In this document: positions 404 through 55,283 of the stretch, piece by piece
Layout of the letters: the number at the start of each line of letters is the position of its first letter
Numbering within the stretch: the first letter of the stretch is position 1
Assembly (NCBI GenBank): GCA_965235115.1
Contig: OZ249436.1
Coordinates: 29,948,001-30,012,000 of the forward strand
Reading direction: 5' to 3'
From: Laetmonice hystrix
Lineage: Eukaryota
Length of the DNA stretch: 64,000 nt
Made by a program: the position numbers and the translations under genes
The notes under the pieces: generated by a model
What the model was told of the DNA's origin: nothing
Database searches by the model: none
Seen by the model: only the letters and a program-made list of their open reading frames with translations

Positions 404-2310
404 TATATCCTACTTGACCGTCAGGAAATTAGTTCACCAGGCAGTGCGCTTGGGTATGCATGGCGGTGTATTCACAGGCTTTTCGTTTATGTTAATTGAA
501 AGTCCAAGATAGCACACCTTCTTCATATTACAATCTCATGTTATTTAAAAAAGTGCAATTGTAACTTAGAGGTTGGGTTTCAGGGAAATGTTTTCTATGT
601 TTCTCTTCTGCGTTCATGCACATATGAACACCCAGAATGAATTATATAAAGAACTGATCTATGTCGCATTATTACTGATTTTGTAAAAATGATGTTCTAT
701 TGGTTAAGAACAAAGCTTGAACAGTCAGGTAGATGGCGCAGTCCAACCAACAAAAAATGTGACATAGATCGTTTTTCCCGTGTTCTCTTATATATTTCTA
801 GTTGCTCCAAAATTTGCGTTAAAGTATTAGAGAAACGCTGAGAAAATCGCATGTCTCTGTGGACCCCTCCCCCTCCCCCACGTCATTGCTGTAATATATA
901 ATAGGCCGATCGCTAAGAGCATATTTATTATATATTAGCTTGTGAAGCGTGGATACACGAACATTGAGGCAATTGAACCATCGGAAGGGATGCTGGAAAC
1001 TGCCAGAAACAAGAAGATTTACCGTAAACATACTCTCGGTGCATTCGGAGCCACAAACCCATCTATTGGTGACCGTAAGTATGCGCACCATCAGCAGTCT
1101 TCATGTTCGGCATCTAACAAATCTCCCACTGTATCCTGATGACCAATTCAACCAACTTAAACCAATATATTAACCAAAAATTTGTTTAAATTGATCAACG
1201 TATTTGAAATAATAATCTAACAAATATGGATTGGTAAAAAAAACTACCAGAACTAGATTATTTTAACCAAGATCTCGGTCGGACACATAATCTACCATCT
1301 AGATTGGTTAAATTTATCCATTATCCTGGTCATTTTAACCAATCTGTTTAGAGGGTATCGTTTATCATAACCAGAGGTCTGATTTCTGCCGATTTTAAAA
1401 CAAATGTCTTTCAGGTTCCTACGATACGGTGGTCTCTTCGGGCGTGTTCATGGAAGGCCACCTTCCATGCAAGGCTCTGCGAGAGATGGCTCGAATTACT
1501 AAACCAGGTTTGTCGTGCGTTTTTCTTTTAAAGGATGGTTCCTTTAGATGATGCATACATGTATTAATATATGTGTAAAGTTTGCGAATGATAATGATAT
1601 ACATGTAGGCCGTTTTGACAAAAATGTTCATGGTCTACAAACGGGAAGTTATTCATTAAAAATGTTTAGAAACGAAATTCTGTTATCTTAGTTGATCTCC
1701 GGAACACCTTAACGTCCTGCGTATGGGCCTGACGTCTAACTGCGTGTCTTTATGGAATAAAGACATCGACTTCTTTTCTAAATAAAAATTATTGAAATGA
1801 AAACGAAATATTTTGCCGTTTTGACAAAAATGTTCATGGTCTACAAACGGAAAGTTATTCATTAAAAAATGTTTCATTTCTAAATAAAAATTATTGAAAT
1901 GAAAACAGATGAAGTATAATCATGAGCACAAATATTCGTTCTTCCAGGCGGTCTGATTGTGATTGTCTTTCGCGAAAACGTTCTGGAGCAGGTGGAAGAA
2001 TACCGCGACCGCCTGGAACCGATGATGAAAGAAATGCAAGCGGAGGGAGTTTGGGAACTCTTGGAAAGATCTGTGAAACCCATGTACTTTTTGGACATGA
2101 ATGGCGTCCTATATGTCTTTAAAGTTAACGGGGAAAACAACTAATTAAGAATAAGATTGAATATTTTAACCAGCGGCCGGTTTCGCCATTATGGCACTAC
2201 TTGATGTACTATAGTTTCTGTTAGAAGATGGGAAGCAGCGGTATCAATTTCGAATGAATTGTTCAGATTTCTAAAATGATGTTATGTATGTAATACAGTA
2301 AACTTAGAGA
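404..2310 (+). repeat. Segmental duplication, partner at ~17709-19945
   Basis: Near-identical introns, exons and 3' UTR shared by methyltransferase copies A and B. Confidence 0.9.
939..2144 (+). CDS. METTL27: METTL27/WBSCR27-like class I SAM-dependent methyltransferase, copy A (last three exons only)
   Basis: Exons 939-1074, 1415-1507 and 1948-2144 have GT-AG boundaries and join in frame: LVKRGYTNIEAIEPSEGML.../SYDTVVSSGVFMEGHLP...ITKP/GGLIVIVFRE...stop. Upstream exons are not in the window. Family assigned by motif recognition. Confidence 0.8.
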
Positions 2311-2808
2311 TACAAATGCAAAATTGATTGATACCCGTAGGGGAGGTATATGTAAAATATCTCCCCCTATATGTAAAAAAGAATTACCGACGAATATAAA
2401 ATTGAGAAATTAACAGCTGGTTCAGGCGGCCATAAAAATACATTTAATAAAACTTTCTTGGGTTCACTGCTATCACACTTGTTTTTACAGATAATAGACA
2501 ATAATTCAATGAAATGTAAAAATTACTGGACTATGCCTATAATAGGAAAAGGTACATGAATGCTAAGGGACCGTCCATGATTATCAACATTTTCTAAAGA
2601 ATGCAGAGAGTACGATTTTAACCCCCTTCCCTCCCAAAGAACACTTAAAAAATGTTGAAAACCTGCAGGCTGACGGGAAAATAAAAATTTAAAAGGTTAC
2701 AGGTAGAACAAAGTTTGCCAGATTGGTGAGGGTGTGGCGGTATTGGCGAAAGTTAACATTAGTGAAATGCCCTGCTGGCCTATAGGCCGAACTAGGTCTT
2801 GGCTGAAC

Positions 2809-2842
2809 CAACGAGACTAGACAGGTCTGTCTAGTCTCGTTG
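2809..2842. mobile_element. 34-bp palindrome with 7-bp TSD (P/Galileo-like footprint or micro-MITE)
   Basis: GCTGAAC|CAACGAGACTAGACAGG-TCTGTCTAGTCTCGTTG|GCTGAAC. Confidence 0.8.
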
Positions 2843-3409
2843 GCTGAACTTTATAACCTTAGATCGGCTAACGCTTAAAGGAAATATGGCACGGGGGTAT
2901 CGACCGAAATCTTCAGTTTTCTGCTTACCTTCTCACCACTGACGTACTTTATGGCACTGATTGTTTTTCATATTGATTCTCCCTAATGTGGAAAAATGAA
3001 TAAAACTAGCTATAGCTTCAGTGTCCGCAAAGTGCGGTGAATCCGCCATCTAAGTAAATAACAAATAAATAAATAAACAAATAAATAAATAAGTAAATAA
3101 CAAATCTATAAAATGATAGTGGGACTATAATGGCACATCCGCTGATCGTGTGAAAAGGGTGCAAAACACAGCCGGCTGCAAATCCCGGGGTCTCGGAACC
3201 TAAGTGTGTCATTTTCAGTGACTGAATTAAGAATTGGCGATTTCTTTTTACAAAATACCAGCCAAAGCTATAAACAGGTAGGGGACCTTTGGGGCATATT
3301 GGAGAACCGCAATGCAGACATATTTTTGCTGAAACACGACGTATTATTTGAAATTCGTGACATATTACCTTTAAACCATCTCCCAATTAACAGACATGCC
3401 ATGTTTCAC

Positions 3410-3438
3410 CAACGAGACTAGACTAGTCTCGATCGTTG
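3410..3438. mobile_element. 29-bp sister palindrome with 7-bp TSD
   Basis: GTTTCAC|CAACGAGACTAGACTAGTCTCGATCGTTG|GTTTCAC. Confidence 0.75.
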
Positions 3439-3714
3439 GTTTCACGTATTGAGCGTGAGATTTTGACCAATCCCCCCTCCCACTCGGCACACCTCAACTG
3501 ACTGACGTCATGTCTCGGCTGTAGGCTAGCTACGACGAATAGGTCGCCATGTTGGGGTGGGGTGGGGGTGGGGGTGGCTAGGTCGGGATCACTGGCCCGG
3601 ATGTAGACAACCGCAAACTGAAAGTCCTATACGGTGACGCCGTGCCGAAAATGGAACACTTTCCACTTAATTAGCCTGTGTCGGAATTTACAGAGTTAGA
3701 TCTGGTTTGCTCGC

Positions 3715-3910
3715 AGGTGAAGGAGAGACTGCTTTGCCTCTCCGGTAAAATATCGAGTAGGAAAGGTAAGTTGGGAAATTAGATTAGAACTATGTGCCTG
3801 TGCGTAGGGGGGAAATTCGACTATTAATTTAGCTGCTCATCGCTACATCCGCGATGCCGCTTTACGACTTTGCGCAAATCCTGGAGAAATGACCGCTTCA
3901 TACATCCGAG
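3715..3910 (+). repeat. Dispersed repeat, second copy at ~45903-46091
   Basis: Shared collinear blocks CAGGTGAAG, CTATGTGCCTGTGCGTAGGGG, CGCGATGCCGCTT, TTTGCGCAAAT and GCTTCATACATCCGAG. Confidence 0.75.
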
Positions 3911-4441
3911 GCCAGCTTCGCCTCCGGATATGACCTAGAAACAGCCAATCAGAAGCAGCGGTGTGCCGAGTGGACCGGACCAGCCAGCAAAGATACAGCC
4001 TTGATCATCACGCCCTCTGTTGGCAGAGAGACGGCGTCCCAGTCTGGCAAAGATGCAACTCATGCTGTCTCCTCGATAGATGGCGTTCCTGTTTGCCAGC
4101 AGCACTGTGTGCGGCCCTGGTGTGCGGCCGTGTCGGCTGTGACTGAGTCAGTGAGTGTTGACTGTGTGTTGTGTTGAGTGTGGCCGACACAAAGACGAAT
4201 GGAGGCATAAGCCATTTCCGAGTTGTGCATGTTTCTCTCTGTTTTGATTTTAACTGCCGCGACTTTCCCTTGTATTGGTTATCGGACAGTTTTCAAACTT
4301 GTGCAAAAGGCAAACAATCCTCATGCACCGGCTGCCATTACGCTGTAGGGATTGGTCAGCGCGCATTGTGCCCCCATGCCTGCTTACTCATTATTCATTC
4401 GCGCCGCATCACAAACTCCCACAAATCTGTCCATTACTGTG

Positions 4442-5212
4442 CAGACCTGCCAAGTCCCCCGGATTCACCGGGGGACTCCCGGTTTTTAACATGATCCCCG
4501 TCCCCCCGGTATGTAACACTTTTCTCACGGTAAATTGAAAACTCATGTATGTACACAAATGTACACAAAACACAAGAAAAAAGATAGATAAATATGTTCG
4601 GACAATTTTATGCAAAACTGACTTATGCCACGTTCTGAAAATATATAAATATTATTAAATGTAATTTCATCATCAGGGACTTCATAAGCAATATTATGCT
4701 TCCTATCCCTAATGTATTTCAACGAGGTTAATGCATCTGTATGCTTTCTTTTCATAGAAATAAACTTGATTGATTGATTGATTGATTAAGTTTAAAATAT
4801 AAAGAAAAAATAATTTTGAGTATGTTTTTAAGTAGCATAGGCCCCTATATGCAACGCAGAACACTAAAAAAAAGGCTAGATAGTAAAGAAACAACATAAA
4901 GCAGCTGATGTCTTAGGACAGTTGCCAGTTTAAAATATAAATAACAACTAGTTTTGAGTGTTTTTATTTTAAATTGATTAAACAGATGGTATGCAAGTTG
5001 TGTAGTCATGTTTAGAATGTAGTGGCTCCATACTAACGTTTCTTCCCCACTCATAGGTCTACATCAGCTTCATAATGTAATCTCCAGTTTTTTCCCCAAA
5101 ATCTCCAGGTTTTCCTCCCAAAATCTCCAGGCTTTCCTCACAATTTCCAGGTTTTTGGACATCAACTTTTAAAAATCTCCCCGTTTATTCTCTCTGTAGG
5201 TTGGCAGGTCTG
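4442..5212. mobile_element. Non-autonomous hAT-like element
   Basis: 12-bp TIR CAGACCTGCCAA...TTGGCAGGTCTG with subterminal ATCTCCAG repeats. No TSD visible. Confidence 0.6.
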
Positions 5213-5832
5213 TAAATTACGCCCGAGGTGAAAATCCGAACCCAACTGGCGGACTTTCCCGAGGGTTCCCGAATGCCGACTTGCGACTATAGCGGATTTC
5301 CCTTGGCAACGTAGTTCCGAATATTAGAGGTACGTTAAATGTTACAGATACCATACAGGACGGCCAACAGATATCATACTGGACGGCCGACGGCAAAAAC
5401 AGGGTTAAACGTATAGGGGCCCGATTTTGCCCGTAAAAAGTCAGGTGTGGCAGAAGGGTAGTGGAAAACAAAGGGGGAAGCGAGAGGTGACTAGGGCCGG
5501 TCTACATAAAGCGGTATGATGACAAACTTGGCTTTCAATCTAACTTACATGTTTAATACACGTTCACAGTTTCATTCAGTATAGTAGGCGTCCTTGTACA
5601 TGTGGTTTCATGTAAACGTTACCAACAGAAAAACCGAACCAGTGAAGGTGTTCCCGCCCCCTGCACAATTTGTCGAGCACCAGCACCGCTGCACTCTTCT
5701 GGTGGGAAGGGAAACTACCAACGATGATTCTAGTGACTATCGCTAGGTGGCAGCAGTGAATGGCTGATGACACAACGGCCCCGTCATTCGCGGCAGGTGA
5801 CCATTTTCGCGGTTTTTACAAAAGGCACATTG

Positions 5833-8516
5833 TTATCCCATCCCCCCCCCTCCCCGAAGGGGGAAATGGGATTTTGAAATCACTTGGTTTCGTCTACACT
5901 ACACGGTTATCTATGGAGGTATCCTCATGAAACTTGCAGGGAACATTGATCATCCACTAAAATGATCAGCCATTGACTAATTACGTCATATGACGTCACG
6001 TCAATGACTTATGACGTATTAAAGTTTCTCAAAGGAGGGCTCATTTCTTGAATTTCTGGAAAAGTAGGAGCAATCTCCATGATAGTTCCTAATTAGGCAC
6101 CTAGGCATTAATCGTCATGCACCTGAATTTGACCTCTGACCTTTGAGATTTGTGAGATCTAGGTCAAAGATGTTAAACAGCTTAAATTGCATCTCCTCCC
6201 TTGATATTTGACAATATGTAGGCAAAGTGTGTCTGAAGAGTCTCATAAGGTGGCTCTTTATGGGGACGTTTAGAAATCAAGAATTTGACTGATCTTAAGA
6301 GAGTCACGTGACTTTGAAATTTGGCACTTTTGGCACTTTTTGCTAAAATTGCTTCAACGAGATAGGAATCATATATATTTGGTCACTAGATGTGTGCTCC
6401 TATTGAAGATTGGTCACTTTGCATAATTTTTTGCATAATTTACCAATATCTTTTCATTTATGATGAAATATGTAATCTGACGTTGACAGGCTACAATCTT
6501 GAAACGTGTGTATGATAGCCATCTACAAATATAACAGTTACAAAGTGTATAGAGTCAGGTATACCACTGATCGTTTAGTTTTTTTCTTGGAAAGGTAATA
6601 TGGACAGAATTGTAAGTTTTAATCGGTATAGTCTTCACAATAAAATGTTTGTCACTCGGGACCGTCGGCTCTCTGTGTATACAGACCACCGGCTGTGAAT
6701 AGCCGCCCGGGGTCGGCAGCGTTACGTAACTACTGATAAGGTCGGGGTCGGGTGACTCCCCCATTCCTCACAGTCAGGGTGGGTTGGTGGACCCTTGCTG
6801 GGAACAGACTTAATTGAATAGCTGGGCCTTTGTCTTTATAACTGTAGGTGTAACTGTCTAAGACATTATATATTTCTTGAATCTCATATTGGAAGAGTAT
6901 ATTATATTCTTGAATCTTATATTGGGGGAGAGCAGAATAAAATATCATGTTAAGCGGTCTTCTTGAAGTTACAAGAGAACTCTTGGCCAGCTCTGCCCTT
7001 GGTTGAGTGAGCCAGAAGGTTGGTGTGGATGGTTCCACGGTTGGCTGAATCACAGGACAGTCAAATTAAAGTAGAGAAAAATGTAGGTAAGCACTTAGGC
7101 CTTAATCACCATTTACCTGAATTTGACCTCTGACCTTTGATCTTTTGGAGATCTAGGTCAAAGCTGGAAAACAGCTTAAATTGCATCTCCTCCCTTGATA
7201 TTTGTCAATATGTAGCCAAAGTGTATCTGAAAAGTCTCATAAGGTGGCTGGCTCTTTATGGGGGCGTTTAGAAATAAGGAATTTGACTTATATTAAGAGA
7301 GTCACGTGACTTTAAAATTTGTCACTTTTGACATTTTTGGCTGAAATTGCTTCAGTCAGATAGAAATCGTGTATTTGTTCACCCGATTTGTGCTGCTATA
7401 AACGATTGGTAACTTTCCATAGATTTTTTAATAAATTTATCAATAGACAATAATTTTGTATTGATGATGAAATATGTAATTTGATTTTGATGGGCTCTAT
7501 CTTGAAATAGTTTTAAGATAGCCATATGCAAATACAACAATAATTGTTGTAATTATTGTAAAGTGTATAGATTCATGTATCCCGCTGATTGTTTAGTTCT
7601 TTTGGGGGAAAGGTAATCTGGCCAGAATTGTAACTTTTACTTTTAATAGGTATAGTCTTCACAATAGTTTTGCACTCTGACCAACGAGTATAGAATAAAG
7701 TATACTCGTTGCTCTGACGGAACTTGGCATCTCTGAATACACAGATCTCTTACTGTGACGCGGCCGCCTGGGGTCGGCAGAGTTACGTAAGGGCTGGTGA
7801 TAAGGGCCCGCTGGTCGGTCCTGACTACTCCCCCCTTCCTCCCAGTCAGGGTGGGGGTTGGAGAAATATGTGTATTCCAAACTGACATTACTGAATTAGC
7901 TGTGCCTCTAAACTGTAGGTGTAACTGTCTAATAATACATGTTTTTGGATATTCCTCCTTTCCTCCCAGTCAGGTTAGGGTTGGAGGAATATGTGTATTC
8001 AGAACTGACATAACTGAATTAACTCTGGTTTTTAACTGTAGGTGTAACTGTCTAACGTATATGTTTTTGAATCTTACATGGGAGGAGAGCTGAATAAAAT
8101 AATACTTTGATTGTTGGCTGTGGAATTAAGGTGACATGCCAAACTTTTGGTCAGTTGCACTTTGTTTCAGCCTGAGTCAAAAGTCTGGTGTGGATGACAT
8201 TCACACCTATTGGCCTTGTGTGACACTGACCTGGCAGGGCGCTTTTTGATATCAGTGTCAATTGTTCATGATGCCGACAACAGGTTTAAGGACTATATTA
8301 TTTCATAATTGTCAAAGGGGTACTTTGTAAATATCCATGTAAATGAAAATAACCTCCAGAGGTAATGTCGGCACGGCAGTGTCAAGTATACCTGTGGAAC
8401 AGTTGGCGGAATCCCAGAACAGTCAAATTAAAGGAGAGAAAAATGTAGGTAATGATAGAAAACCATTGGGGAAATAGGATCCTACCTGTATTGCTTGGCA
8501 ATCAGAGTTTCTAGTT
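5833..8516 (+). mobile_element. Helentron/DINE-1-like non-autonomous element with ~1-kb internal duplication
   Basis: The 5' end is an imperfect palindrome ATCCCAT..CCCCGAAGGGGGAAATGGGAT. The 3' end has subTIR GGGGAAATAGGAT, hairpin ATTGCTTGGCAAT and CTAGTT. Segment ~6090-7089 is repeated at ~7090-8451. Confidence 0.7.
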
Positions 8517-9548: not shown

Positions 9549-12506
9549 AGCAGTGTGAAGTTAGGATCTGGTACACGGTACACGGTACACGATTCGCCAA
9601 GTCAGGATCTTATTCAGGAAATAGGATCCGATTTGAACCTACGGGGCAGAGGGACTAATGAATGGTCCCCATGGACTCTTCTCCCCATGGACTATCCATG
9701 ACTAGGAGGAAGTTCTCCTACAATTGTTTTCAGGGGTCACGCTGGGTCACCAAACTTAGATATATGAGAATTTCCCGGAAAATGTCACGTCTCGGTCCAC
9801 TAAGGGTCCCCTACGGGGCAGGGGGACTAATGAATGGTCCCCAGGGACTCTTCTCCTCATGGACTATCCGTGACTAGGAGGAAGTTCTCCTACAATTGTT
9901 TTCAGGGGTCACGCCGGGTCACCAAACTTAGATATATGAGAATTTCCCGAAAAATGTCACGTCTCGGTCCACTGAGGGTTCCCTACGGGGCAGGGGGACT
10001 AATGAATGGTCCCCATGGACTCTTCTCCTCATGGACTATCCGTGACTAGGAGGAAGTTCTCCTACAATTGTTTTCAGGGGTCACGCTGGGTCACCAAACT
10101 CCAATGATATATGGGAATTCCAGGAAAATTGTCACATCTCGGTCCACTGAGGGTCCCCTACGGGGCAGGGGGACTAATGAATGGTCCCCGTGGACTCTTC
10201 TCCTCATGGACTATCCGTGACTAGGAGGAAGTTCTCCTACAATTGTTTTCAGGGGTAACGCTGGGTCACCAAACTCCAATCATATATGAGAATTTCAGGA
10301 AAATTGTCACATCTCGGTCCACTGAGGGTCCCCTACGGGGCAGGGGGACTAATGAATGGTCTCCAGCGACTCTTCTCCTCATGGACTATCCGTGACTAGG
10401 AGGAAGTTCTCCTACATTTGTTTTCAGGGGTCACGCTGGGTCACCAAACTCCAATCATATATGAGAATTTCAGGAAAATTGTCCCATCTCGGTCCACTGA
10501 GGGTCCCCTACGGGGCAGGGGGACTAATGAGTGGTCCCCAGGTACTCTTCTCCTCATGGACTATCCGTGACTAGGAGGAAGTTCTCCAACAATTGCTTTC
10601 AGGGGTCACGCTGGGTCACCAAACTCCAATCATATATGAGAATTTCAGGAAAATTGTCACATCTCGGTCCACTGAGGGTCCCCTACGGGGCAGGGGGACT
10701 AATGAATGGTCCCCAGGGACTCTTCTCCTCATGGACTATCCATGACTAGGAGGAAGTTCTCCTACAACTGGTTTCAGGGATCACGGCGGCTATTGATGTT
10801 TTCCCTAAATTGTCTTCAATAGAGTTCTTGGCTCCCCCCTCATTCACCCCGTCCGGCACGGCGCGGCCGGGCCGCCTTAGTGGAATATATATATACCTAC
10901 CCCCCCCCCCCCGATCATCCCCGCCGGACACACGGACCGGCCTCAGTTGTAGGAGAACTTCTTCCTAGTCATGGAGAGTCCATGAGGAGAAGATTCCCTG
11001 GGGACCATTCATTATTCCCCCTGCCCCGTAGGGGACCCTCAGTGGACCGAGACGTGACATTTTCCGGGAAATTCTCATATATCTAAGTTTGGTGACCCAG
11101 CGTGACCCCTGAAAACAATTGTAGGAGAACTTCCTCCTAGTCACGGATAGTCCATGAGGAGAAGAGTCCACGGGGACCATTCATTAGTCCCCCTGCCCCG
11201 TAGGGGACCCTCAGTGGACCGAGATGTGACAATTTTCCTGAAATTTTCATATATGATTGGAGTTTGGTGACCCAGCGTGACCCCTGAAAACAATTGTAGG
11301 AGAACTTCCTCCTAGTCACGGATAGTCCATGAGGAGAAGAGTTCCTGGGGACCATTCATTATTCCCCCTGCCCCGTAGGGGACCCTCAGTGGACCGAGAC
11401 GTGACATTTTCCGGGAAATTCTCATATATCTAAGTTTGGTGACCCAGCGTTACCCCTGAAAACAATTGTAGGAGGACTTCCTCCTAGTCACGGATAGTCC
11501 ATGAGGAGAAGAGTCTATGGGGACCATTCATTAGTCCCCCTGCCCCGTAGGGGACCCTCAGTGGACCGAGACGTGACATTTTACGGGAAATTCTCATATA
11601 TCTAAGTTTGGTGACCCAGCGTGACCCCTGAAAACAATTGTAGGAGAACTTCCTCCTAGTCACGGATAGTCCATGAGGAGAAGAGTCCATGGGGACCATT
11701 CATTAGTCCCCCTGCCCCGTAGGGGACCCTCAGTGGACCGAGATGTGACAATTTTCCTGAAATTCTCATATATCATTGGAGTTTGGTGACCCAGCGTGAC
11801 CCCTGAAAACAATTGTAGGAGAACTTCCTCCTAGTCACGGATAGTCCATGAGGAGAAGAGTCTATGGGGACCATTCATTAGTCCCCCTGCCCCGTAGGGG
11901 ACCCTCAGTGGACCGAGACGTGACATTTTACGGGAAATTCTCATATATCTAAGTTTGGTGACCCAGCGTGACCCCTGAAAACAATTGTAGGAGAACTTCC
12001 TCCTAGTCACGGATAGTCCATGAGGAGAAGAGTCCATGGGGACCATTCATTAGTCCCCCTGCCCCGTAGGGGACCCTCAGTGGACCGAGATGTGACAATT
12101 TTCCTGAAATTCTCATATATCATTGGAGTTTGGTGACCCAGCGTGACCCCTGAAAACAATTGTAGGAGAACTTCTTCCTAGTCACGGATAGTCCATGAGG
12201 AGAAGAGTCCCTGGGGACCATTAATTAGTCCCCCTGCCCCGTAGGGGACCCTCAGTGGACCGAGACGTGACATTTTCTGGGAAATTCTCATATATCTAGT
12301 TTTGGTGACCCAGCGTGACCCCTGAAAACAATTGTAGGAGAACTTCCTCCTAGTCATGGATAGTCCATAGGGAGAAGAGTCCATGGGGACCATTCATTAG
12401 TCCCTCTGCCCCGTAGGTTCGAATCGGATCCTATTTCCTGAATAAGATCCTGACTTGGCGAATCGTGTACCGTGTACCGTGTACCAGATCCTAACTTCAC
12501 ACTGCT
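9549..12506. mobile_element. Foldback-type element made of inverted 172/175-bp tandem arrays
   Basis: About 90 bp of unique outer inverted repeat (AGCAGTGTGAAGTTAGGATCT(GGTACAC)3...). Left arm 9549-10770 has ~6.7 units, spacer 10771-10943, right arm 10944-12506 has ~8.7 inverted units. Confidence 0.92.
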
Positions 12507-14186: not shown

Positions 14187-15941
14187 GCAATGTCAACAAC
14201 TCCCCCTTCATTAGGCCCCTGTTTGACTGTGTTATTGTTAATTTATGCCGACGGTTTCATTAGCCTATCACGGGTATTATGACACTTCGGGGTATAGACA
14301 CAGAATAGGGCAGGTGAGAGTCATCACGTGATCACTGTGCTGGTTATCCAGTAACCAATCGGGGGGGGGGGGGTAGTCTAACAACCCAGCGAGGGTGTAG
14401 CCCCCCAACCCAAACTTACGTACCAGATCTCGCCCCCTCAGAAAGTCCTGGCTCGTCCCCCCTTAGACACCCTGAGTATGAACTGGAAAATGTTTGCAGA
14501 GCCAAGACAGTTTTTTTGAGAATTCCGGACACACCTTATCCAGACCAAAGATTTATGCCAACGTCATAAACTGCCCGAGTTTTATTCATTCTATTTTATT
14601 TATTTATATATTTTTGTCTGTTGGGAGTTGATAGTAGCAAGGAGTATCAATCACTAAATGTCTTGCTATCCTGTAATGTAGCTAACTGTGGTCTTAAGTT
14701 GTTGTTTTTTTATTGGATCCACAACAATCGCCTTGGTTGGCGTTCTTCCTTGTGTGGGAAAAGGAAGTCGTACAATACATTTATAACTGATAACTTAGAT
14801 GCTTTTTACACTCTAGACTTCCAGGAACAGAACAACAACAGTGCTTATACAACAAAAATATGAAATTATATATATACTTCTGGGTATTTTTACCTCATTC
14901 CACGTACTTTAACATAATATATTTACAAAACAATGCATAATGTGAGAATAAATGAATAGTTGGGTAAGCGATTACTAATCGGACAAGAGTATGTGTTACG
15001 CGTTACATGATGAAGATGGGATTATAGGATTTGGGTTATGGCTCTTTTAAATGTCTGTGGGCAGCGTATACGTTGCACGTCAGCATTGAGCATGTCCCAC
15101 AATTTCAGACCGCGTTGTGTGGGCATACCTTTTTTTATGCATTATTGTTAGAAATTGCCGTTTCATTCTATCGGTTAGGTAATCAATTCTATTTAGCGTG
15201 TGCAAATCAGAGACTGGAAGTTCTCGACCTAACTCGTAGGCAGAGGCGTAGTACTCGGTTTTGGATGACGGTGCCAACACAATTGGCACCGTCATGTAGA
15301 AAAGAACAGTATAGATTGGAAGAATGGTTTGTTTGTAAACTGCCAGGCACGCCTCATTTGTAATGACTTCCGTAACTTACCTAATTTAAAGATTCTATTG
15401 TATCACCCATGGTAATCCTCAATTCATCAGGATTACCGAACTTGTTTAGTGAGCCAAACCACGCGACCATTGTTTTCTTTTTGTTTACGGTTAGACCATT
15501 TGCGATTGACCAGTGGTATAATCGGTTAACGTCTTCTTGCAGACGGGCCTTGGTGGCAGCCGGTGTCTCGGCACTTACGTATAACATTAAATCGTCTGCA
15601 AACATGAGGCATTGACAATGTTTAAATAACTGGGTTATTTCGTTAATAAACAAGATAAACAGAAGTGGTCCAAGTGTTGATCCTTGTGGAACACCGAATT
15701 TAACATTTTGGGGCGTTGACTTCTCGTTAGTAGCCATGCAGTGTACTTTGTTTCCGGTCGCTAAGATAGCTGGTGAGCCATATAGTGGGACAGAAACGCT
15801 ATCAAAAGCCTTTTGGAAGTCTATGAATACTGCAGCCGTAATCAACACCTGGTCCCTTGCAGTGTAGTGGTCATTAGTAGCTCTAAAAACAGCATCACTA
15901 GTACCACGCCCTCTGCGAAAACCAAACTGCGATTGTGATAG

Positions 15942-16109
15942 CAGGCGCGGATCCAGGATTTTTTGCAGGGGGGGTTCAGAAGATGCGAGCCACCGGGGGA
16001 AATGGTCTGAGGCCCTTCCCCGATAACATTACAAAAACCTAAATTGGTCCCGAGCAGGGGGGGGGGGGGGGTCCGGACCCCCTGGACCCCCCTTCTGGAT
16101 CCGCGCCTG
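15942..16109. mobile_element. CAG-ended MITE inserted in the LINE
   Basis: GATAG|CAGGCGCGGATCCAG...CTGGATCCGCGCCTG|GATAA. Confidence 0.8.
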
Positions 16110-16962
16110 GATAATGGGTTATTTTCATCAAGAAATGTAGATAGGTAACGGTGTGCAATTTTTTTTGCCTGTATTTTGCCTGGTCATGGTAGGAGTGTGA
16201 TTGGGCGCCAGTTGTTGACCTTTCTAAGATCACCCTGCTTCGGTATCGGGATCACCGTACCCGTGCGCCATTGACTTGGGAAGATACCCATGTCCAAGGA
16301 ATTCCTAAAAAGTGTCACTAATCTGTGGGTTAATAGTTCAAAGGCGTCTTTTAGTACCTTAGAGTTTATACCTTCGATTCCGGACGACCACATTTAAGTC
16401 TCTGACCAGTTTTTCAACAGCCCGGTCATTTATGAGCTCAGCGCTGCTGATTTTTGGTTTTGGTGTGGGCACATCACAGTGGTTTGGAAGTATGTGTGTA
16501 TTAGTGTCCCTGAGATTTTGACAGAGACTTTCCCCAATGGTTGCAAAGAAGTCATTAAGATAGTTAGCAATATCGCATGGTGGTATTTCAGATCCCGTAT
16601 TTTCGTCCACGAGACTAATAGCTGTATTTGTTTTCGCCGGGTTTAGCAATTTATTTGCCTCCCTCCAGAATTTTCTAGGCTCGGATCGAGCCTCCTCTCG
16701 TTTGTTTTTTATCCAATCTGACTTGGCAAGGCGCAACATGCGTTGAATTTTCCGCCGTAGGTCTTTAGCTTTAATCCACTCATCCCTATTATTGGTTATA
16801 ATCGATATAGTTTAATATAATCTTTCCCGTCAGCTATTAACTCGAGTATATCATTGGTTATCCATTCGTCCGTGTGATTTTTAACTCTTCGTGACCGATA
16901 CGGGCAGGTCTTATCAAGGTAATTTTGGATATGATTTATCATGACTGACCACTGTAGTTCAG

Positions 16963-17121
16963 GGGCCCGTCTCACTAAAGGCTGGTTAATAACCAGATCG
17001 TTAAGTTAACATAGGAGTGAATGGAAGGCTGCTGGTTACTGAAACCAGCAGCCTTCCATGCATTCACTCATATGTTAACTTAACGATCTGGTTAATAACC
17101 AGCCTTTAATGAGACGGGCCC
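16963..17121. mobile_element. Palindromic Harbinger-like MITE inserted in the LINE
   Basis: GGGCCCGTCTCA...TGAGACGGGCCC forms a nearly full-length hairpin, flanked by CAG/CGG. Confidence 0.75.
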
Positions 17122-17307
17122 CGGGGTTTTTAGTAGCGTCAAAAGCTGACCAGTCACGATGGATTAGATGGTCCCAGAGGTCGTATTTTTGTAGTAGTTC
17201 TTGCAAGACCTTCCACGAAAGGCCATGCAGTCTCTTTTGACTCTTTGCTAAGTTCACTTTTGATATGTATACGAATACTCTATATTATGCCGCAGAAACT
17301 ACAGAAA

Positions 17308-19786
17308 ATGGCTAACGTGGACAAGTTGGATGAAGTGGCCTTCAAAAGAAACAGAGGGGCCCAGAACCCAAAGCAATCCTTTCCCGAACGAATGCAGTAT
17401 TACGACACTTGGGCATCTGAGGAGACATACGACATCGTACGCATGTTTAGGAGCCTACATAATTAGAGTAATTCAAAATTAATTTAGTTCTGAAACCACA
17501 CATTTTATCAAGTGTAAATAGAATATTATATTTAAAATTCTGTTTCTAGCATCTCGGGCCCACTAACTATCATGGACCGACACTCTGTGCAGCTGCTATT
17601 GAACATTATATGCCCACAACGAAGGAAATGCATATCCTTGACATAGGAGCGGGCACTGGACGCGTGGGAACAGAAGTACGTAAAGCCATAGAATATTCAC
17701 CAAACCAATATAGCCTACTTGACGGTCCGAAAATTAGTTCACCAGGCAGTGTGCCTGGGTATCTATGCATGGCGGTGTTGATTCACAGGCTTTTCGTTAA
17801 TGTTAGTTGAAAGTCCAAGATAGCACACATTCTTCATATTACAATCTCATGTTATTTAAAAAAGTGCAATTGTAACTTAGAGGTTGGGTTTCAGGGAAAT
17901 GTTCTCTATGTTTCTCTTCTGCGTTCATGCACATATGAACACCCAGAATTATATAAAGAACCGATCTATGTCACATTATTACTGATTTTGTAAAAATGAT
18001 GTTCTATTGGTTAAGAATAAAGCTTGAACAGTCAGGTAGATGGCGCAGTCCAACCAACAAAAAATGTGACATAGATCGTTTTTCCCGTGTTCTCTTATAT
18101 ATTTCTAGTTGTTCCAAAATTTGGGTTAAAGTATTACAGAAATGCAGAGAAAATCGCATGTCTCTGATCCCCCTCACCCTCCCCCCACGTCATTGCTGTA
18201 ATATCCAATAGGCCGATCGCTAAGAGCATATTTATTATATATTAGCTTGTGAAGCGTGGATACACGAACATCGAGGCAATTGAACCATCGGAAGGGATGC
18301 TGGAAACTGCCAGAAACAAGAAGGTTTACCGTAAACATACTCTCGGTGCATTCGAAGCCACAAACCCATCTATAGGTGACCGTAAGTATGCGCACCATTA
18401 GCAGTCTTAAAGGGAAAATGTGAGTGTTCAAAGCGCCACCTAGTGAGTTGCGTTGGTGCCACTGGGGAAATGTGAGTATTTAAAGCGCCGCGTAGTGAGC
18501 TTTAAAAAAAAAAATGTTTGGCTTATTTATGCAGTCAACTAGTTTGATGTGGAAATCAGTAGTATTTTTTAAACCATGAACCAAACTGTGTGCCAGAACC
18601 TGTCTACTCCATTGAATACTATAGTTAAGACCCGTGTTTTACCAAGGCACTGACTGTTTGGCAGGCTCTAACTTTTTTTTTAATTAGGTGACCCCCAATT
18701 TTTTTTGTTTTAAACTATTAGTGGTCGCTTTTTAACTATTAGTGAAAATGTCTGAAAAATTCCGTTTTCCCCATTGAAACCTTCATAGTAAAGACCCATT
18801 TTTACGGAGGCCTGTATAAAAGAAAATCTAATTCGGTGAGATATGATTTTTTTGTTTCATTGTACTCCCTGGGACAAAGGCTATCCCCCATAAAAATATT
18901 TTGAAAATTCCAGTGGTCGATTCAAACACTCACATTTCCCTTTAAGGTCATGTTCGGCACCTATCAAATCTCCCACCATATTTTGGTGAAAAACTAGGCT
19001 ACCCAAACTAGTTTATTTTAACCAAGATGTCGGTCGGACATATCTACCATCTAGATTGGTTAAATTTAACCATTATCCTGGTCATTTTAACCAATCTGTT
19101 TCGAGGGTATGTTTTATCATAGAACGTACAGTTCTATGGTTTTATCATAACCAGAAGTCTGATTTCTGCCGATTATATGTCTCTCAGGTTCCTACGATGC
19201 GCTGGTCTGTTCGGGCGTTTTCCTGGAAGGTCACCTTCCATGCAAGGCTCTACGAGAGATGGCTCGAATTACTAAACCAGGTTTGTCGTGCGTTTTTCTT
19301 TTTAAGGATGGTTCCTTTAGATGATTCATGTATTAATATATGCATAAAGTTTGCGAATGATTATGATATACATGTAGACCGTTTTGACACCAATGTTCAT
19401 GGTCTACAAACGGGAAATTATTCATTAACAAATGTTTAGAAACTAAATTCTTTTATCTTAGTTGATCTCCGGAACACCTTGATGTCCTGCTTGTCTTCAT
19501 GGAATAAATAAAAATAATTTTCTAAATAAAAATTGTTGAAATGAAAACAGATGAAGTATAATCATGAGCACAAATATTCATTCTTCCAGGCGGTTTGATT
19601 GTGATTGTCTTTCGCGAAAACGTTCTGGAGCAGGTGGAAGAATACCGCGGCCGCCTGGAACCGATGATGAAAGAAATGCAAGCGGAGGGAGTTTGGGAAC
19701 TCTTGGAAAGATCTGTGAAACCCATGTACTTTTTGGACATGAATGGCGTCCTATATGTCTTTAAAGTTAACGAGGAAAACAACTAA
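17308..19786 (+). CDS. METTL27: METTL27/WBSCR27-like methyltransferase, copy B (complete, 226 aa)
   Basis: Exons 17308-17436, 17550-17675, 18246-18381, 19188-19280 and 19590-19786 total 681 nt, in frame, all GT-AG. Contains YDTWA..TYD, SAM motif I ILDIGAGTG, EPSEGML, EGHLP and KPGG. Confidence 0.85.
18411..18941. mobile_element. Kolobok-like MITE in an intron of copy B
   Basis: TTAA|AGGGAAAATGTGAGTGTT...AACACTCACATTTCCCT|TTAA; absent from copy A. Confidence 0.85.
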
Positions 19787-20679
19787 TTAAGAATAAGATT
19801 GGATATTTTAACCAGCGGCCGGTTTCGCCATATGGCACTACTTGATGATCTGTTAGAAAATGGGAAGCTGCTATCAATTTCAAATGAATCATTCTGATTT
19901 TTAAAATGATGTTATCATGTACGTAATACAGTAAACTTAGAGATATAATATAAATGCATAGATCGGTGAGGCCAACACCTGTTCAAACTTATTAATAGGC
20001 CTACATTATTATACAGTATGTAGCATGTGAACAAATACTGAAATGGAGACATGGAAACATCTGGAGGTACCGTACCAGAATGCAGGGGCGGGTCCATCTT
20101 GGAATGGTCTAACAAGGACCCGTGGACCCCCCGGCATGGATCCGCCCCTTGAAATGTAGAACTAGGCATGGAAACATCACAATGCCGTATTTGGCCAACG
20201 AGCAGGACGAACACAGTCTAAAATTGCTTGGGGGAGGCAGACCTAGACCTAGGTTCATAAAAGGGCACCTTGATCACGTAAGGGAAAATACTCACCTTTA
20301 AAAAGGGCACCTTCTCGTAGAAAGGGCACTTTTCACCATGATTAGCTACTGGGGGGCACCCCCCCCCCCCCCGCTAGGTAGGCCTCTCGCCCTGATGATC
20401 TCGACGCCTTTGTTGTGTAAATGGCTGTTTGTTCTTAGAGACAACGTTGGCCCATTATAGCATTGCTTCACCACCAGTGGGCCAACGCTGACCTTGACTG
20501 GCTCTACCAGACCCACTTACACAATATAGACCTGGGGACCAGGCTAACGCTGACCTTGGAGCTCATTTTCAGCCCACCGGCAGTGCCGACCAAAGACCTG
20601 TGGGCCCGAAACACGGACAAGTTTCCCTTGATAAGTCTTCTTTGATCGATGAGCCCCTGTTCCACCTATAGGTAGGCCT

Positions 20680-20847
20680 ATATATGTCCGACGGCTAGTT
20701 ATGTCCAATAAGAGATAATTATGTCCGCAAACATCAGCTAGATGTGTCCGGAGAAATTGATATGTCCGAATTACTGGACACATCTAGCTGTTATTTGCGG
20801 ACATATCAATTTCTCCGGACACATAACTAGCCGTTTGGACATATTTA
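20680..20847. repeat. Inverted-repeat MITE-like element
   Basis: ATATGTCCGACGGCTAGTTATGT...ACATAACTAGCCGTTTGGACATAT with internal TGTCCG/CGGACA repeats. Confidence 0.6.
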
Positions 20848-22146
20848 GCCGGAACAGCCCCGCCCCGTGTAGATCATAGGTCTACAGGTTTTCCTCGCCC
20901 ATTGCCAAGTTGAAGTTTCCTCGTTCCCTTGGCGTTACAAAGCTAGCACAACCAGCTTTCCAACGAGTGGGAATTGATGGAGAAATCGGAGCTCGGCGCC
21001 AAAGCGCTGGGATCCTTTATTTAGGAGAAACGAGGGTGTGCGTTGTAGGTATGAGATTAGTATAGGTAATGATATCTTATGGGATCTAGGACCCATGTCA
21101 TGAGCTCAGTAGGTATTGCCAAGGAAATGTAAACAATCGCTGTACTCCCGTTAACCTCTTAGTTCTTACCTCTCGCGCGGTCTGGGCCGGAAGTGACGAA
21201 GGAGACTTGGGAGACGATCCGGAGGGTATATGCTACACAACCAAGCAGAGTCGAGTTCTCTACCTTTGGAAGCATCGTATTTTGGACTATGTATTTCCAT
21301 ATAATGTAGCCTATTATCAGTTATGGTATATTACTATGGTATTGTTATGTTATGTTACATTATAATCAGTTACACGTTATATGGATTTATCATTTACCAT
21401 TATAATGTTTGTAGAGTCATCCATTGCCATGGGGTGATCGACGGTGATCGATATGAATAAAATGTAGCCTACAGCAAGCATTCCCGTTTTCCGAGTTTTG
21501 CCTGCATAAAACTTGTTACTTTTCCTTTCTACACGGGCACTTTTTTCTCGTCAATGAAGACTTGCCAATGAGAACTTGTTCGTACTACTGTAGAATAGGC
21601 GAAGTGTAGAATAAGTCTCCAGAGATGACGGCGGCGAATTTGGCAATTTTAGAGACGCTCAGACCTATCCCCTAAAACATTTCGTTTCGATGAAAGATGA
21701 AATTATAATTTTTTTTAAATACAACTGAGTATAGGCCTGATGTTTTTGGACTCAGGGGTTTAGTATTTCGAGTTTCAAATGTACAACAAAATGTCTGAAA
21801 GGCATACCCTGGTATACGTGTAATTTTTCTCCTGTGCGGCAGCCTTCTTAGCATATTGTACTCTCCAAATGCCTTCATGATGTCTGTATCTGAAGCGTTG
21901 TGCAGATGTTGCACGCCTGAAAAGAAAGCAAGCAACATTAACTAAACTTTCAACGGATAAATGCTTGACTTGTCGACTGTGATTTTCATTCCATTCAGCA
22001 TAATTATGTGTACTGTAATCTCCAAGTTATCAAACTGTTTCAATTTGTTTTTAAAATAGTTACAGAAATGCCACTTTAGATTTCCAGACACCAGGCCTAT
22101 ATTCTGATATTGCTAAAAGATAAACGAGATGTCACCTAATATTTAC

Positions 22147-22483
22147 CAGTGGGGGATCCAGGATTTTGATAAGGGGGGGCCCACCCAAAAAAGAATTTTA
22201 GCCTCGCTACGCTCGGCATGATTTTATTGCACTTATAACCATTTTGGGCCCCTTTTGATCTATTTCAATGCGCAATGGCCCAGAGTTATGTTGCTCCTGG
22301 ATGACTGAGGAGGCCCCTTTGGGCCCGATGTTACTATCACGTTTAATATAGGAGGCTTTTTTAAAAGAATTTTGTTGGAATACTGGTTTCATGGTCCGAA
22401 TAATACATCTTCTTAAAAAAAAGCGGGGAAAAGGAAAATTTAAGGGGGGGCCCGGGCCCCTTGCCCCCCTGGATCCCCCAGTG
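22147..22483. mobile_element. CAG-ended MITE with 5-bp TSD
   Basis: TTTAC|CAGTGGGGGATCCAGG...CCTGGATCCCCCAGTG|TTTAC. Confidence 0.8.
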
Positions 22484-23634
22484 TTTACCTAAATGTGACT
22501 GCAGTCTATCCAACGGTAACTTTTCCTCGCTTCATATTAAGTGCTGTCATTACCTGACATTAAATCCACCTGAAATAAGTTCCGATTTTAAATTTGTAAA
22601 TGGTTGTTACTCCCTCAAGTAACATCATCTTGATACGTGGATCGGTATTAAATAAAGAGTTTGAATTCAACCTGATCGTCGTCAACTTATAAAAGAAGTT
22701 TATAAACAATACAGCTGTTTTCCTGTGACGCCATCCTTCTTATTATCTTGATTAAGGTCAACCCTACTCCATGTGGTTCACCACCCTAACTTGTCATGCA
22801 TGTGTCTGGTCATGTTAATGAATTACATCTTTATATAGATCTATGAACTCTACCCTTGAGGCTGCATTCTTCGACACAAAATAACTATACCTTTCTCAAC
22901 GTCGGCAATGGTGGACTATACGGGCAAGATAAATCTGACGATGGCCCCAGAGGGGCGCACTCTATAGGGGGCGGGCGGGGGGACTTATTGCCCGAGTAGA
23001 GTAAACACATAAACACTTCACTTAAAGAAAACACCGATACAATGAATGTTATACTGGTGAAGATATTTCAATATCAATACATGAAAGTAGAATATCGATG
23101 CTTTTATAGGTAGCTTTTACCTCTGAGTGCCCATGCAAACTTATATTGCCAGGCACCCCCTCGCTCGACCTGCTCCATCTACGCCAGCACGACTTATGTC
23201 AGCTGCATGTGATGTCTGCATTATTTTGAGACCCATGGTCCATCCGCTCACCAAGATTTGTCGCGTTTTCTTATCCTTGCATTTTCCATGAGAAATAAAA
23301 AAAAAAGACTCGATAACTGCCCTTCCCTTGTATCTGCTTTAATTCACACTGCCCGAATTGTCCGACAAAGTGTTTTTTTTTCTGTTATGAATGTACAATA
23401 AATTATACTTTATTTAACTATGAAGTAATGAGATTTTTTAAAGTTGGATAATTAGAAAATATACGTACCAATCAGCTTCTGCATAATTATTATGGTCTGC
23501 CAACCTTTGAAGTGTCCACCAGGGATTCAGCATCTGAAAGTATAACGTTAGACTATTCCACAAAGAATTTTGAAAATATTTATCTGTAATGCACATGTTT
23601 AAATTTAATTCCACACTTAACAGATTAATCCTAC

Positions 23635-24009: not shown

Positions 24010-24768
24010 CCTACCTAAAAGGAATAATGCACTTGAACGGCCTAACCTTAATTAGCTGTGGTTGAAGACCTTAATTTGCACATTTGTAGATTCAGAAATA
24101 CCGTATAATTTACGTACCATAATCTATATCAATATGTTGGATCCTATATATTGATAAGAATAGCTCCCAACCATGTAGGCCTACTGTAGCCAGGGGCGGA
24201 TCCAGAATTTTTCTGTTAGGGAGGTAGGCAAAGTTGATTTTATCCAGAACTTGCCCCCCCCCCCCCCCCCCAGCTTAAAATTGAGCTGGGGGACAACAGC
24301 CAACATAATTTTTTATCTCGCGAAGTGTTAGATTGTTTAAGACTGAAGGCCTAGACACTTTAGTGTCTGGGGTACTTATGAGTAATAAAAAAACTTGAAA
24401 CTTGAAAACTTGGCGCCCCAGGCAAAGATGTGAGCTGGAAGCTACCCGGCTCTGACACGAGCGCCAGCGACCCCTAGCGAGAGGTCCGGGAACCAGCCTA
24501 CAGAGCCTTGATGCAACTGTCTCCTCGATAGATGGCGTGCCTGTGTACAAAACAGTCTGCGTGGCAGACGGGACCACTGAGAGAGGTGTGTCAGCATGTG
24601 ACCAGAATAGACGGCTCCGATTGGCGACTCTCTCGTCGGGAAGTCTGACCTCACTGAGCGAAGGACGGTCGACGGTGTTGTGTTGAAAGAAACCGAAGTC
24701 CATTTTTGGCCTAGAAATCTTGCCTAATTCACCGTTTTCATTCATCGGTCCTAGCTCAAACAGCAGCC

Positions 24769-27700
24769 ATGACGAGCACGGGTTCGAGTATCGATACAGA
24801 CTGTATGACCATGACACGGTTCCTGCTAGCCGAGCAACGAAGACACCCTCACGCCGAGGGAGATCTCACTCAGCTGATGAATGCCATTCTCACTGCCGTG
24901 AAAGCTATATCAAACGCCGTCCGCAAGGCAGGGATCGCCAGTCTGTAAGTGGAGGGGTTGGAAGGGGGGGGGGGATCCGCGACACACTTTTTAAGTTACA
25001 CACCTATCTGGTGTTTGTATAATGAAAGTTCAATCTTTATTGGGGTAAGTTTGATTGGTGGTGGGATTGTATCAAAGTAATAGTATCTAGAATCTAGAGC
25101 TGTTTTTGATTGATACTGATATTGATATACATAGTGATAGTCATAGTGATACAATAGTCAATATATATTTAGTATGATAATCCTCGTCTAGTATTGACTT
25201 TTTATTTAGATTGTATTGACAAATATACTAGTCTACTCTAGTATTGTTTATGCAAATTATGCAGGCCTTTTCCTTTGAAAAGGCCAGGCAAGCAAATATA
25301 TTATTAATGGCCTAAACTTCAATTTGAACCTCTAGCCTAGGCAAGCATATTTTTCTGACGACCTGCGGACTATTTTAATGCTTGCCAATCAGTCAACCAA
25401 TAAGGTTCATTGTTGTAAGCCAGCATATGGCTTTGACTTTGACGTCTCCGTACCTGGGGTGCGTTCCTCATCTATCGTTATCCCGTCGTGCATTAAAATC
25501 CCCATTGAAAATACATTGGAGTTAACGATACGACAAGCTAACGACATGATGAGGAACACCCCCCTGGTACTCAGTAATTAGTTCCCAATTATACCACAAG
25601 AGGCAGTCAGAAAGTCGAACGGACCTCTGCTTGTGAGAATAGGGTCACTCCAGAGGAAGTTGGCTAGGCGCCCAAAGTTTTAACTACCGTAATCTTATAG
25701 GTAGGCGCGCAGTCTTTTGCGCACCTTGGAACAATTTTAGGCAAGCTATGGAGCGCAAGTGCAAAAGGGTAAAAACATTGTGTCCTAATTAAGGGGCTAA
25801 AATTATTGTTTTTCATCAATTGCAGATATGGCATTACAGGCAGTAGTAACGTGCAAGGAGAAGAGGTCAAAAAGTTGGACATTCTTTCCAATGACCTGTT
25901 CATCAACATGTTGCGGTCATCGTACACAACCTGTCTCATGGTATCAGAGGAAAATGAAAATGTCATTGAGGTAGACACAGAAAAACAGGTAAATGTCAAC
26001 AAAAACAGGCAATGTCCGAAATTAATAAATTGTCAACTGGTCAAACATTGGTTTCTGCAGCTCTTGTGTTTTAAACTGGCACAGCTGATTTTTATTCTGA
26101 CAGTTAAAAAATGACGGGACTTTATCTTCCCCAAATCCTAGCTTGTTATTGTACAAGGTATTGGGTGTAGGCTAAGCTGAGCTAGATCTGGCCTACATGT
26201 AAGATATAGTTTCTGATTATCGCCTATCCCTCCAACTTCCAAGCCGTACTATAGCAGTTTTGGTACCCAGTACAGTACTCTAAAATATGATCTAATATAA
26301 GATACTAACCTGGGGTCCGTTCCAGTAACGAAAGACGTCTTTAGCAAAGACGTCTTTGCAGGGCCAGTGTTAAAGAATAGGAGGTTAGTGTAACACCCGT
26401 CGCCGCAAAGACCTCTTTGGGCTCATCGACCATTTCAAAGACGTCTTTTGGGCTTAGTGGAACACACCCCTGAAATTTAAGGATTCATGTGGGGGCCGTA
26501 GCCCTATGATGAGAATGATTACACACCATTTGTTATCAAATTCACGGTATGCAGCCGTCTCGATAAACCCTGGTGGCCAGCAGTTTTGCCTGCCCACTTC
26601 CCAATTTATTCCGTTGACCCCAGCGCAAATTTATTCTCTAGTTAGATATGTGTATTAAACCGTACATGTTAGGCATACAGTATTTACTTAAAATACGAAT
26701 AGGAAGTCAGTATAACATGTCATTTGGCATCTTAACTTTTGAACTTGGGTCAGATCAGGTCATTTCATTCAATACTTTATTGTTGGACCATACCTTAAAA
26801 ATCAAGTCAGGTAATAGAAACGAAGGGATCAAATATTATATTGAAAATATCTTTGATCAGTACCATATTGATTGTTGGGGGCTATGATTTCTATGAAGTC
26901 TTATTAAACTTATCGTACTGGGGAGAATTGCAATAGAATCATACTGCCAAGCGCGCCATTTTAGGCAATTTTTTTTTCACTGCATCCACAATTACTTATT
27001 TAATATGAAAATTTACATGTTGCTGTACCTTATTTTTATTTTGGTTGACCTTATTATTAAACATCTTTATTATTGCCATACCTCTGAAAACAAGAACACG
27101 TGTATTTACTGTCCCACCCGTAACGGTTTTAATATAAATTTCTTTATGATAAATAATAAGGCTCTATTTATTTTAAAGGTCCTAATTTGCTTCTTTAGTA
27201 CATGTGCATTTTTCTATGCAAATACGAATAAAATGGTGAATTACTTTTTCTGTAATTGTAAAATTTGTGTTACGGGTGGGACAAAATTTCCAAATTTAGC
27301 AAGTTCCGTTTTTTGTACAAATTTCTATGAAGTCTTATTAAACTTATCGTATTTGTACATTTCAGCTATACGTGTGTACACAGAATACCACTGCAAATCC
27401 ACTAATAGATTTGAGGGGGGGGGGAAATTCTAGGCAGTGATCTGCAATTTTTGGGGCACTTCACTTTTTTCTCTTTTTTTTTGCATAATCATGCATTGTG
27501 CCACACTGCAATGGTTGGTGGGGAAAGAAAGGATATCTTGACAAAGATTTTTATAGTGACTTAAAATGAGGAATATGGAGACATACTTTTCCGTACTTTT
27601 TCCATAAATGTTACAAAACTACTATACGTCAAGAAAGCTGCTTTTGAGGTATTACATGTAAACTTTCATAGACATGTACTTTGTGCCCAGTTCCTTACTA

Positions 27701-39071: not shown

Positions 39072-39732
39072 GGTGCGTATACGGACCAAATTTAAATATC
39101 ACCTTTAGATTACCTATATTTCTTGACAGCCTTTCATTACATAGGACACAAAAAGACCATGGGTCGCAATTACTTTTTTCCTTCCTTTTTGTGGAAGTAT
39201 ATGTATCGATTAATCGAAATATTGAAAAGGTGGCGAGGTCGATGCATGGAAGAAACCGAAGGTGCGGTGTCTGACTGTGCATACTCTAGGACAAACTTCT
39301 CGTGTACGCTAACGTGTACCCCCACTCTGAAAAACAACCACAGAATAATGCCAGGTGATGACGCTTCCTTCACAGTCCGAATTTGGCGTAGATTTTTTTT
39401 AAAATTCAGTAGCTTTGCGGCGTGGCATAAAATTGACAATACATGTAGATGGTTGGGTCTGGGTGTGACAACAAAGACTAGAAGAGGCAGCTAGAATAAC
39501 AGACGAGCCAGTGGGGTTCCCATTTCCTTTTATTGCTACGATTCGGACTTCACATCACGAGTCATCTCGAACCCAACTTCACAGATGTTCCAGGCCCTCT
39601 GTATACATTAGACGTGCACATGTGGGGGTTCATCCAAACATAGGCCTATACATTAGCCTACGTGCGAACATCACGTTCATCCAGACATATACATTACGTG
39701 CGAACATCACGCCGGTCTAATTTATTCTTCAA

Positions 39733-53112: not shown

Positions 53113-53195
53113 CAGTCGGCTCTACCTCGACAGATGGACAGAATCATGTGAAAATCCGAACCCAGCTGGCGGACTTTCCCGAGGGTTCCCGAATG
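53113..53195. mobile_element. 83-bp mini-element with 10-bp TSD
   Basis: GGCCGCCCGG|CAGTCGG...CCGAATG|GGCCGCCCGG. Confidence 0.65.
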
Positions 53196-54834: not shown

Positions 54835-55283
54835 TTAACATGAGAGTCAAGTCGTCAAAATGAACCGTCACAATCCCGTAAAATCAAAGAAGTCAAAGTT
54901 CAAACCGTCACAGAAAACCGGGTGTGACGATTCAACGGTGGCGTGTAGGCCACCTTGATTCGATCCTCTTATCGCACGGATCATACATGCTAAATAAGGA
55001 AGAGTCCACGTTTTCATGGCCAATGTCATTGTCAAGAAAGGCTACAATCCGTGACAAATTCGGTTTCAGTTTTTTGCCAACTAACGAAGAAAGCCGTCTA
55101 TTGACAGCACCACAGCCCAGACACTGGCGAGTGGCCGCCATTGTTGTTTACATGGGACACTACGACAATAGTGCGCTGACCCCATCTGACCCAATATGGC
55201 GACCTCCGATTGGTATCCGAGTCTCTCTACATCGTAAAGGGCTCGGTGTTCCGAATGCAGTAGACATGCTAAGAGCTCAAAAA

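Follow-up and report, generated by a model that had tools for sequence, protein, structure and literature searches.

Four very short elements with CA..TG inverted tips, each enclosed by a 7-bp direct repeat, are probably excision footprints of a P-superfamily transposon of the 7-bp-duplicating kind, a reading to which we attach a probability of about 0.75. They lie in the window, i.e., the whole 64-kb stretch of DNA that was analysed, which is repeat-rich animal DNA. The preliminary description had taken the first two for scars of a P-superfamily element using 17-nt chemistry outside flies; the insertion, the 7-bp duplication, the common tips and the differing centres stand as observations, while we infer the parent, the P-type enzyme and the 17-nt cut from geometry. 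The elements work like the scar found at a P donor site, their membership of the P superfamily being putative. The four elements, E1 to E4, with their target copies and empty sites, are as follows.

2802..2808, forward strand: left target copy of E1, GCTGAAC; the empty form skips 41 bp, i.e., 34+7
2809..2842, no strand assigned: E1, 34 bp, 17-nt tips head to head; absent in contigs of runs X2 and X3
2843..2849, forward strand: right target copy of E1, GCTGAAC
3403..3409, forward strand: left duplication copy of E2, GTTTCAC
3410..3438, no strand assigned: E2, 29 bp, of the E1 family; left tip of 14 nt, right tip interrupted
3439..3445, forward strand: right duplication copy of E2, GTTTCAC
7675..7718, no strand assigned: E3 with its repeats; 30-bp element at 7682-7711, perfect 7-bp CTCTGAC
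6655..6662, forward strand: empty paralogous site of E3, approximate, the paralogues being ~80% alike
19111..19145, no strand assigned: E4 with its repeats; 21-bp element at 19118-19138, 7-bp GTTTTAT
1359..1365, forward strand: empty paralogous site of E4, the paralogue being 28 bp (21+7) shorter

As first described, E1 measures exactly 34 bp, with a perfect copy of GCTGAAC on either side; the 17+17-nt arms are identical at 16/17 positions, the sole difference being G vs A at position 17, and, like a related copy outside the window (L004), it folds into a 15-bp hairpin (z about -7.6). E2 does occupy 29 bp between perfect GTTTCAC repeats but does not form a clean short palindrome: its left arm agrees with E1 over 14 nt, whereas in the right arm the agreement is interrupted after 6 nt. 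The sequence can be taken as 14+11 nt with 4 inserted nt, or as a 14-nt stretch followed by a fold-back copy and 6 nt. The targets of E1 and E2 both fit GYTNNAC, which bears out the motif originally suggested. E3 has its first 7 nt in common with E1 and represents a related family; its stem of 11 bp is short and its centre asymmetric, as would be expected if the cut fell beyond a short TIR. E4 carries CA..TG but otherwise a tip unlike that of E1, and it is a less certain member of the set because its boundary is ambiguous, the direct repeat continuing 4 nt into the element.

Several other sites in the window were noted and left uncounted, namely a weak hairpin with the first six letters of the family and no 7-bp repeat (5719-5746), possibly a decayed copy, and a 29-bp CA..TG sequence with a 5-bp inverted end and perfect 7-bp repeats (39672-39700), which is near chance at 0.087 per window. 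The short palindromes at 5230-5258 and 51062-51096 are flanked by 7-bp repeats that are near-perfect, and are members of a different small repeat family, which recurs at 53148-53195. The four elements are confined to the initial 19.2 kb, the other 45 kb having none, and E1 to E3 fall inside 4.9 kb; under uniform placement this clustering gives p values of 0.017 and 0.054, the 0.017 being that of E1 to E3 in a test chosen post hoc, and local hopping as its cause is only a suggestion.

Chance is a poor source for these elements. A scan of the window, set to CA-starting sequences 14-60 bp long in which both the TIR (6 bp or more) and the 7-bp repeat are perfect, found four, where 0.007 were expected per window from 300 block-wise first-order Markov resamples. 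With the element boundaries fixed, only a repeat length of 7, among lengths from 4 to 9, fits, and it does so in 4/4 elements. For three of the four, a form of the site is known that is short by exactly the element plus 7 bp, and E1, E3 and E4 are therefore insertions with true 7-bp target duplications. For E1, contigs from two of three public runs (X2 and X3) skip the 41 bp; their depth is low (52 and 116), 10 letters fit on either side, and the intervening letters are unread. This contig comparison covers 2300-4700 only, and the three runs represent one sample. The E3 paralogue lacks 37 bp (30+7) between conserved anchors, and E4 sits in a duplicated segment of which the other copy lacks the element and one repeat. 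The paralogous pairs that supply these empty sites are 404-2315 with 17709-19948 (~82-94%) for E4 and 6094-6897 with 7088-8087 (~70-79%) for E3. No empty form of E2 was seen in the contigs of the three public runs. A 159-letter contig over E2 (3349-3493), found in all three, is 14 letters longer than the window at a position that is not given; if these letters lie inside E2, a second, 43-bp form occurs at the site. The flanks of E1 and E2, at 2867-3400 and 3840-4000, are very high-copy repeats, with a summed contig depth >100,000 in most bins vs ~50-130 for single contigs.

Chance hairpins or assembly artefacts could be invoked nonetheless, since the same outer 11+11 nt as in the related copies described below also turn up in gene-dense, prokaryote-like DNA (loci L002/L007, L005, L008 and L015). 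These loci are without 7-bp repeats, and the empty forms rule out chance and artefact for E1, E3 and E4, so that this explanation is hardly credible. Templated insertion during ordinary break repair, i.e., local duplication and fold-back with no transposon involved, would account for direct repeats that overrun the expected limits, by 4 nt into the element for E4 and by 3 nt upstream for E1 and for L001. It is plausible for E4 alone and very improbable for the set: E1, E2, E3 and six copies outside the window have a 7-nt tip in common amid unrelated flanks, which local templating cannot yield, and the duplication is 7 bp throughout.

These outside copies come from a metagenome scan with a pattern in which the outer 11+11 nt were fixed and 0-30 nt allowed between them, i.e., 22-52 bp in all, longer parents being invisible to it. 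It returned 10 loci, 6/10 of them in one assembly, JAAUYI01, where they measure 33, 33, 34, 32, 34 and 32 bp and lie in DNA lacking any ORF of 150 aa; BLASTN gave no match between these loci and the window. Among the five copies with both flanks, perfect 7-bp repeats surround three, with one match of 6/7 and one of 5/7. The six have six different centres, a variation that is partly built in by the fixed outer 11+11 nt, and all can be aligned to one perfect 34-mer, L004; in these alignments, 1-2 nt are lost from the centre in 4/6 copies, and in three of these the loss touches or adjoins the 17|18 junction. The remaining metagenome hairpins (L002/L007, L005 and L008) were left out of the family for want of a 7-bp repeat and for their 77-91% ORF cover; they amount to four loci with three distinct sequences, of 30, 31 and 33 bp, in gene-dense DNA. 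Prokaryote genomes provided one 41-bp hairpin without duplication, likewise outside the family.

Taken together, the ten elements from two organisms all begin and end with CA..TG inverted tips (10/10, CA having been required by both scan and search), and all are at most 34 bp long, 7/10 of them at 32-34 bp, in a search that stopped at 52 bp. None of the JAAUYI01 copies exceeds 34 bp (0/6), for which p is about 0.005 under a uniform length distribution, a generous null; the length argument is weakened by the hairpins without duplication, 3/4 distinct ones being also of 30-33 bp. In a viral control with a looser 7+7 pattern, run on 120 loci of which one was removed as a duplicate or edge, 0/119 distinct hits reach a 6/7 flank match and 30% exceed 34 bp. 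The targets of nine elements, taken on both strands together, give GTYNRAC, with G in 11/18 and T in 13/18 at positions 1-2, a small sample.

The geometry resembles that of a system described in flies. In the available text of a review, the Drosophila P transposase cuts one strand at the 3' end and the other 17 bp inside, a cut qualified there as unusual and atypically long (PMC7776569), and P donor ends are reported to bear 17-nt non-complementary 3' overhangs (PMC5466332). Both the 17-nt P cut and the 17+17 donor joins on which the preliminary description relied are thus in print for Drosophila P in these sources (PMC7776569, PMC5466332). By our hand count of Table 1 in PMC5466332, the arrangement target+17+17+target makes up 3/34 fly junctions, many others being shorter, and 5/34 exceed 34 nt through templated insertions, up to 44 nt. 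Since fly junctions reach that length, a strict ceiling at 34 bp is too sharp a test, even if nothing above 34 bp came out of a search open to 52 bp.

On the model of P, a scar of this kind would arise in four steps: (i) insertion at a GTYNRAC-like site with duplication of 7 bp, which is the step observed here; (ii) the inserted DNA being, presumably, a longer element bounded by inverted CA..TG ends; (iii) cleavage of one strand at the tip and of the other 17 nt inside, as for Drosophila P, which would put a 17-nt 3' transposon tail on each flank; and (iv) filling and ligation of the tails, probably by end joining. A lossless join would then give 34 bp (E1 and L004), trimming 30-33 bp, and templated synthesis a rearranged centre such as that of E2. 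The scars would be inert and would record the arrival and departure of the element.

The putative parent was sought in the window and in viral contigs. No longer element with these ends occurs within the 64 kb, and the parent ends met only lone matches in the viral contigs (four and three), with no partner end in the locus. Long CA..TG candidates with 7- or 8-bp repeats in the window came down to array-internal matches and two weak pairs; the pair 14778-23393, whose ends agree at 10/12 positions and no further, was rejected as chance. No THAP or P transposase was found by Pfam in 150 of the 226 window ORFs of 68 aa or more, the others being 21 ORFs that belong to tandem arrays and, of the remainder, the 55 shortest. 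Other recognisable features of the window are the following.

24715-32403, forward strand: spliced fructose-1,6-bisphosphatase gene, four exons by Pfam
15384-16028, reverse strand: reverse-transcriptase fragment (RVT_1, E 1.5e-26)
9549-12506: foldback-type element; its two inverted arms, ~97% alike, consist of 172-175-nt tandem units, ends starting CAGTGTG
55281-59164: second foldback-like element, 52-nt tandem arrays enclosed by inverted arms of 320 nt

The first exon of the fructose-1,6-bisphosphatase gene (59 aa) has its best named matches in annelids (83% and 81%), insects being at 69-73%; on this one exon and no tree, the host is not a fly and is probably an annelid.

The foldback elements listed above lend some substance to the idea that the scars are what is left of longer inverted-repeat elements, moved by a transposase of P type or not, after hairpin-slippage deletion or aborted gap repair had removed the interior, in which case no particular cut depth would be implied. 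Lengths do vary, E2, E3 and E4 being of 29, 30 and 21 bp, and no parent is at hand to fix the position of a cut. This origin is nonetheless quite improbable, 6/6 outside copies falling at 32-34 bp where 22-52 bp were allowed, which the uniform-length null given above makes rare.

The alternative of a self-mobile micro-MITE, i.e., a 34-bp palindrome moved by a 7-bp-duplicating transposase, the centre of which later decays by hairpin or cruciform loop mutation, draws on partly the same facts. It would dispense with the parent that neither the window nor the viral contigs provided, the alignment of the six outside copies to L004 speaks for it, and the hairpins of E1 and L004 are such that central changes could postdate insertion. 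We consider it unlikely. The swarm of copies with an identical centre that the preliminary description had associated with such an element does not appear, as no two of the ten elements have a centre in common (0 identical pairs), and two families with different arms both have a maximum of exactly 34 bp. With respect to MITE criteria in general, inverted ends and target duplication are present, and many near-identical copies of one size are absent (10 elements, two organisms). In its other form, the same idea has the 34-bp palindromes themselves mobile, bare 17-nt tips reinserting at GTYNRAC by means of a P-type or other transposase; this too is unlikely, though the lack of a parent in the sequence covered and the one 34-mer matched by all six outside copies speak for it. 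Such 34-mers would have to move by some way that avoids the standard paired-end cut, by which they would be split into single strands, and would be far shorter than any mobile DNA element known to us. For a P-type enzyme, the available text of PMC7776569 leads one to expect that the 17-nt cut would divide a 34-mer into two single strands, and it gives binding sites inside the 31-bp TIRs as a requirement of Drosophila P, sites that are absent from the 34-mer (PMC7776569).

Excision footprints, in turn, should carry a trace of the distance at which the enzyme cuts. The arm of the outside family diverges from that of E1 at position 12, with 2/6 identical letters in an ungapped alignment; once two letters are removed from the E1 arm, the two are identical at 15/15 positions, and both still end 17 nt from the tip. 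Both families ending there despite a 2-nt indel fits a cut measured from the tip, unlike an inherited 34-mer. Such a ruler would be suggestive only, the comparison being one pair and random tails aligning equally well by one indel of 1-3 nt 7% of the time. No report of a 17-nt staggered cut by an enzyme other than the fly P transposase was found in the literature covered and, to our knowledge, no other superfamily cuts as deep as P.

If these elements are footprints, the length of a scar would give the cut depth of P-superfamily enzymes directly from genome sequence, in the present case for a lineage that duplicates 7 bp, in what is probably an annelid and in a second genome that is eukaryote-like. 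Each scar would be a natural germ-line repair junction and an excision missed by repeat annotation, and whether P chemistry is conserved across the superfamily could be tested in any assembly by scanning for the motif. In the literature covered, which is incomplete, we found neither this tip sequence nor any account of P-type scars of 30-34 bp occurring naturally in assembled genomes.

Relative to known systems, the elements recall MITEs, as defined in the available text of PMC3698922, in being short and non-coding with inverted ends and a target duplication, and are unlike them in that members of a MITE family are uniform in size and sequence, whereas the scars have differing centres and no interior (PMC3698922). 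P-like elements are known in many taxa according to these partial sources (PMC7776569, PMC3698922). Among them, zebrafish Pdre2 / THAP9 offers a non-fly P-type element with CA..TG ends and, for Pdre2, a short, 13-bp TIR; unlike the present elements, Pdre2 has an 8-bp duplication and flanking deletions after excision, and the text covered gives no 17-nt retention for it (PMC10983969). Galileo and 1360/Hoppel come closer in the accessible text of three articles, with a 7-bp duplication and a palindromic target GT...AC (PMC4168063, PMC2775673, PMC3698922), the duplication being given for 1360 and Galileo in PMC3698922 and the Galileo target as GTANTAC in PMC4168063; the consensus here, GTYNRAC over nine sites, is close to that of Galileo but differs from it, and any link to Galileo or 1360 is tentative. 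Within the available text of PMC4168063, PMC2775673 and PMC3698922, no Galileo or 1360 footprint or cut depth is reported, the word "footprint" occurring 0 times in the first two. As both chemistry and scar are already known from laboratory flies, the finding is an extension and not a new system. Fly P differs in its tip sequence and in duplicating 8 bp, and in the sources available its junctions come from laboratory induction in rad51 mutants, whereas the scars in the window are natural and sit in a probable annelid, their putative cut depth being read from length only. For the rest, the elements resemble the fly P donor sites described there in keeping both target copies, with CA..TG tips head to head and 17+17 nt where the join is lossless, and in the occurrence of shorter joins and templated insertions alongside.
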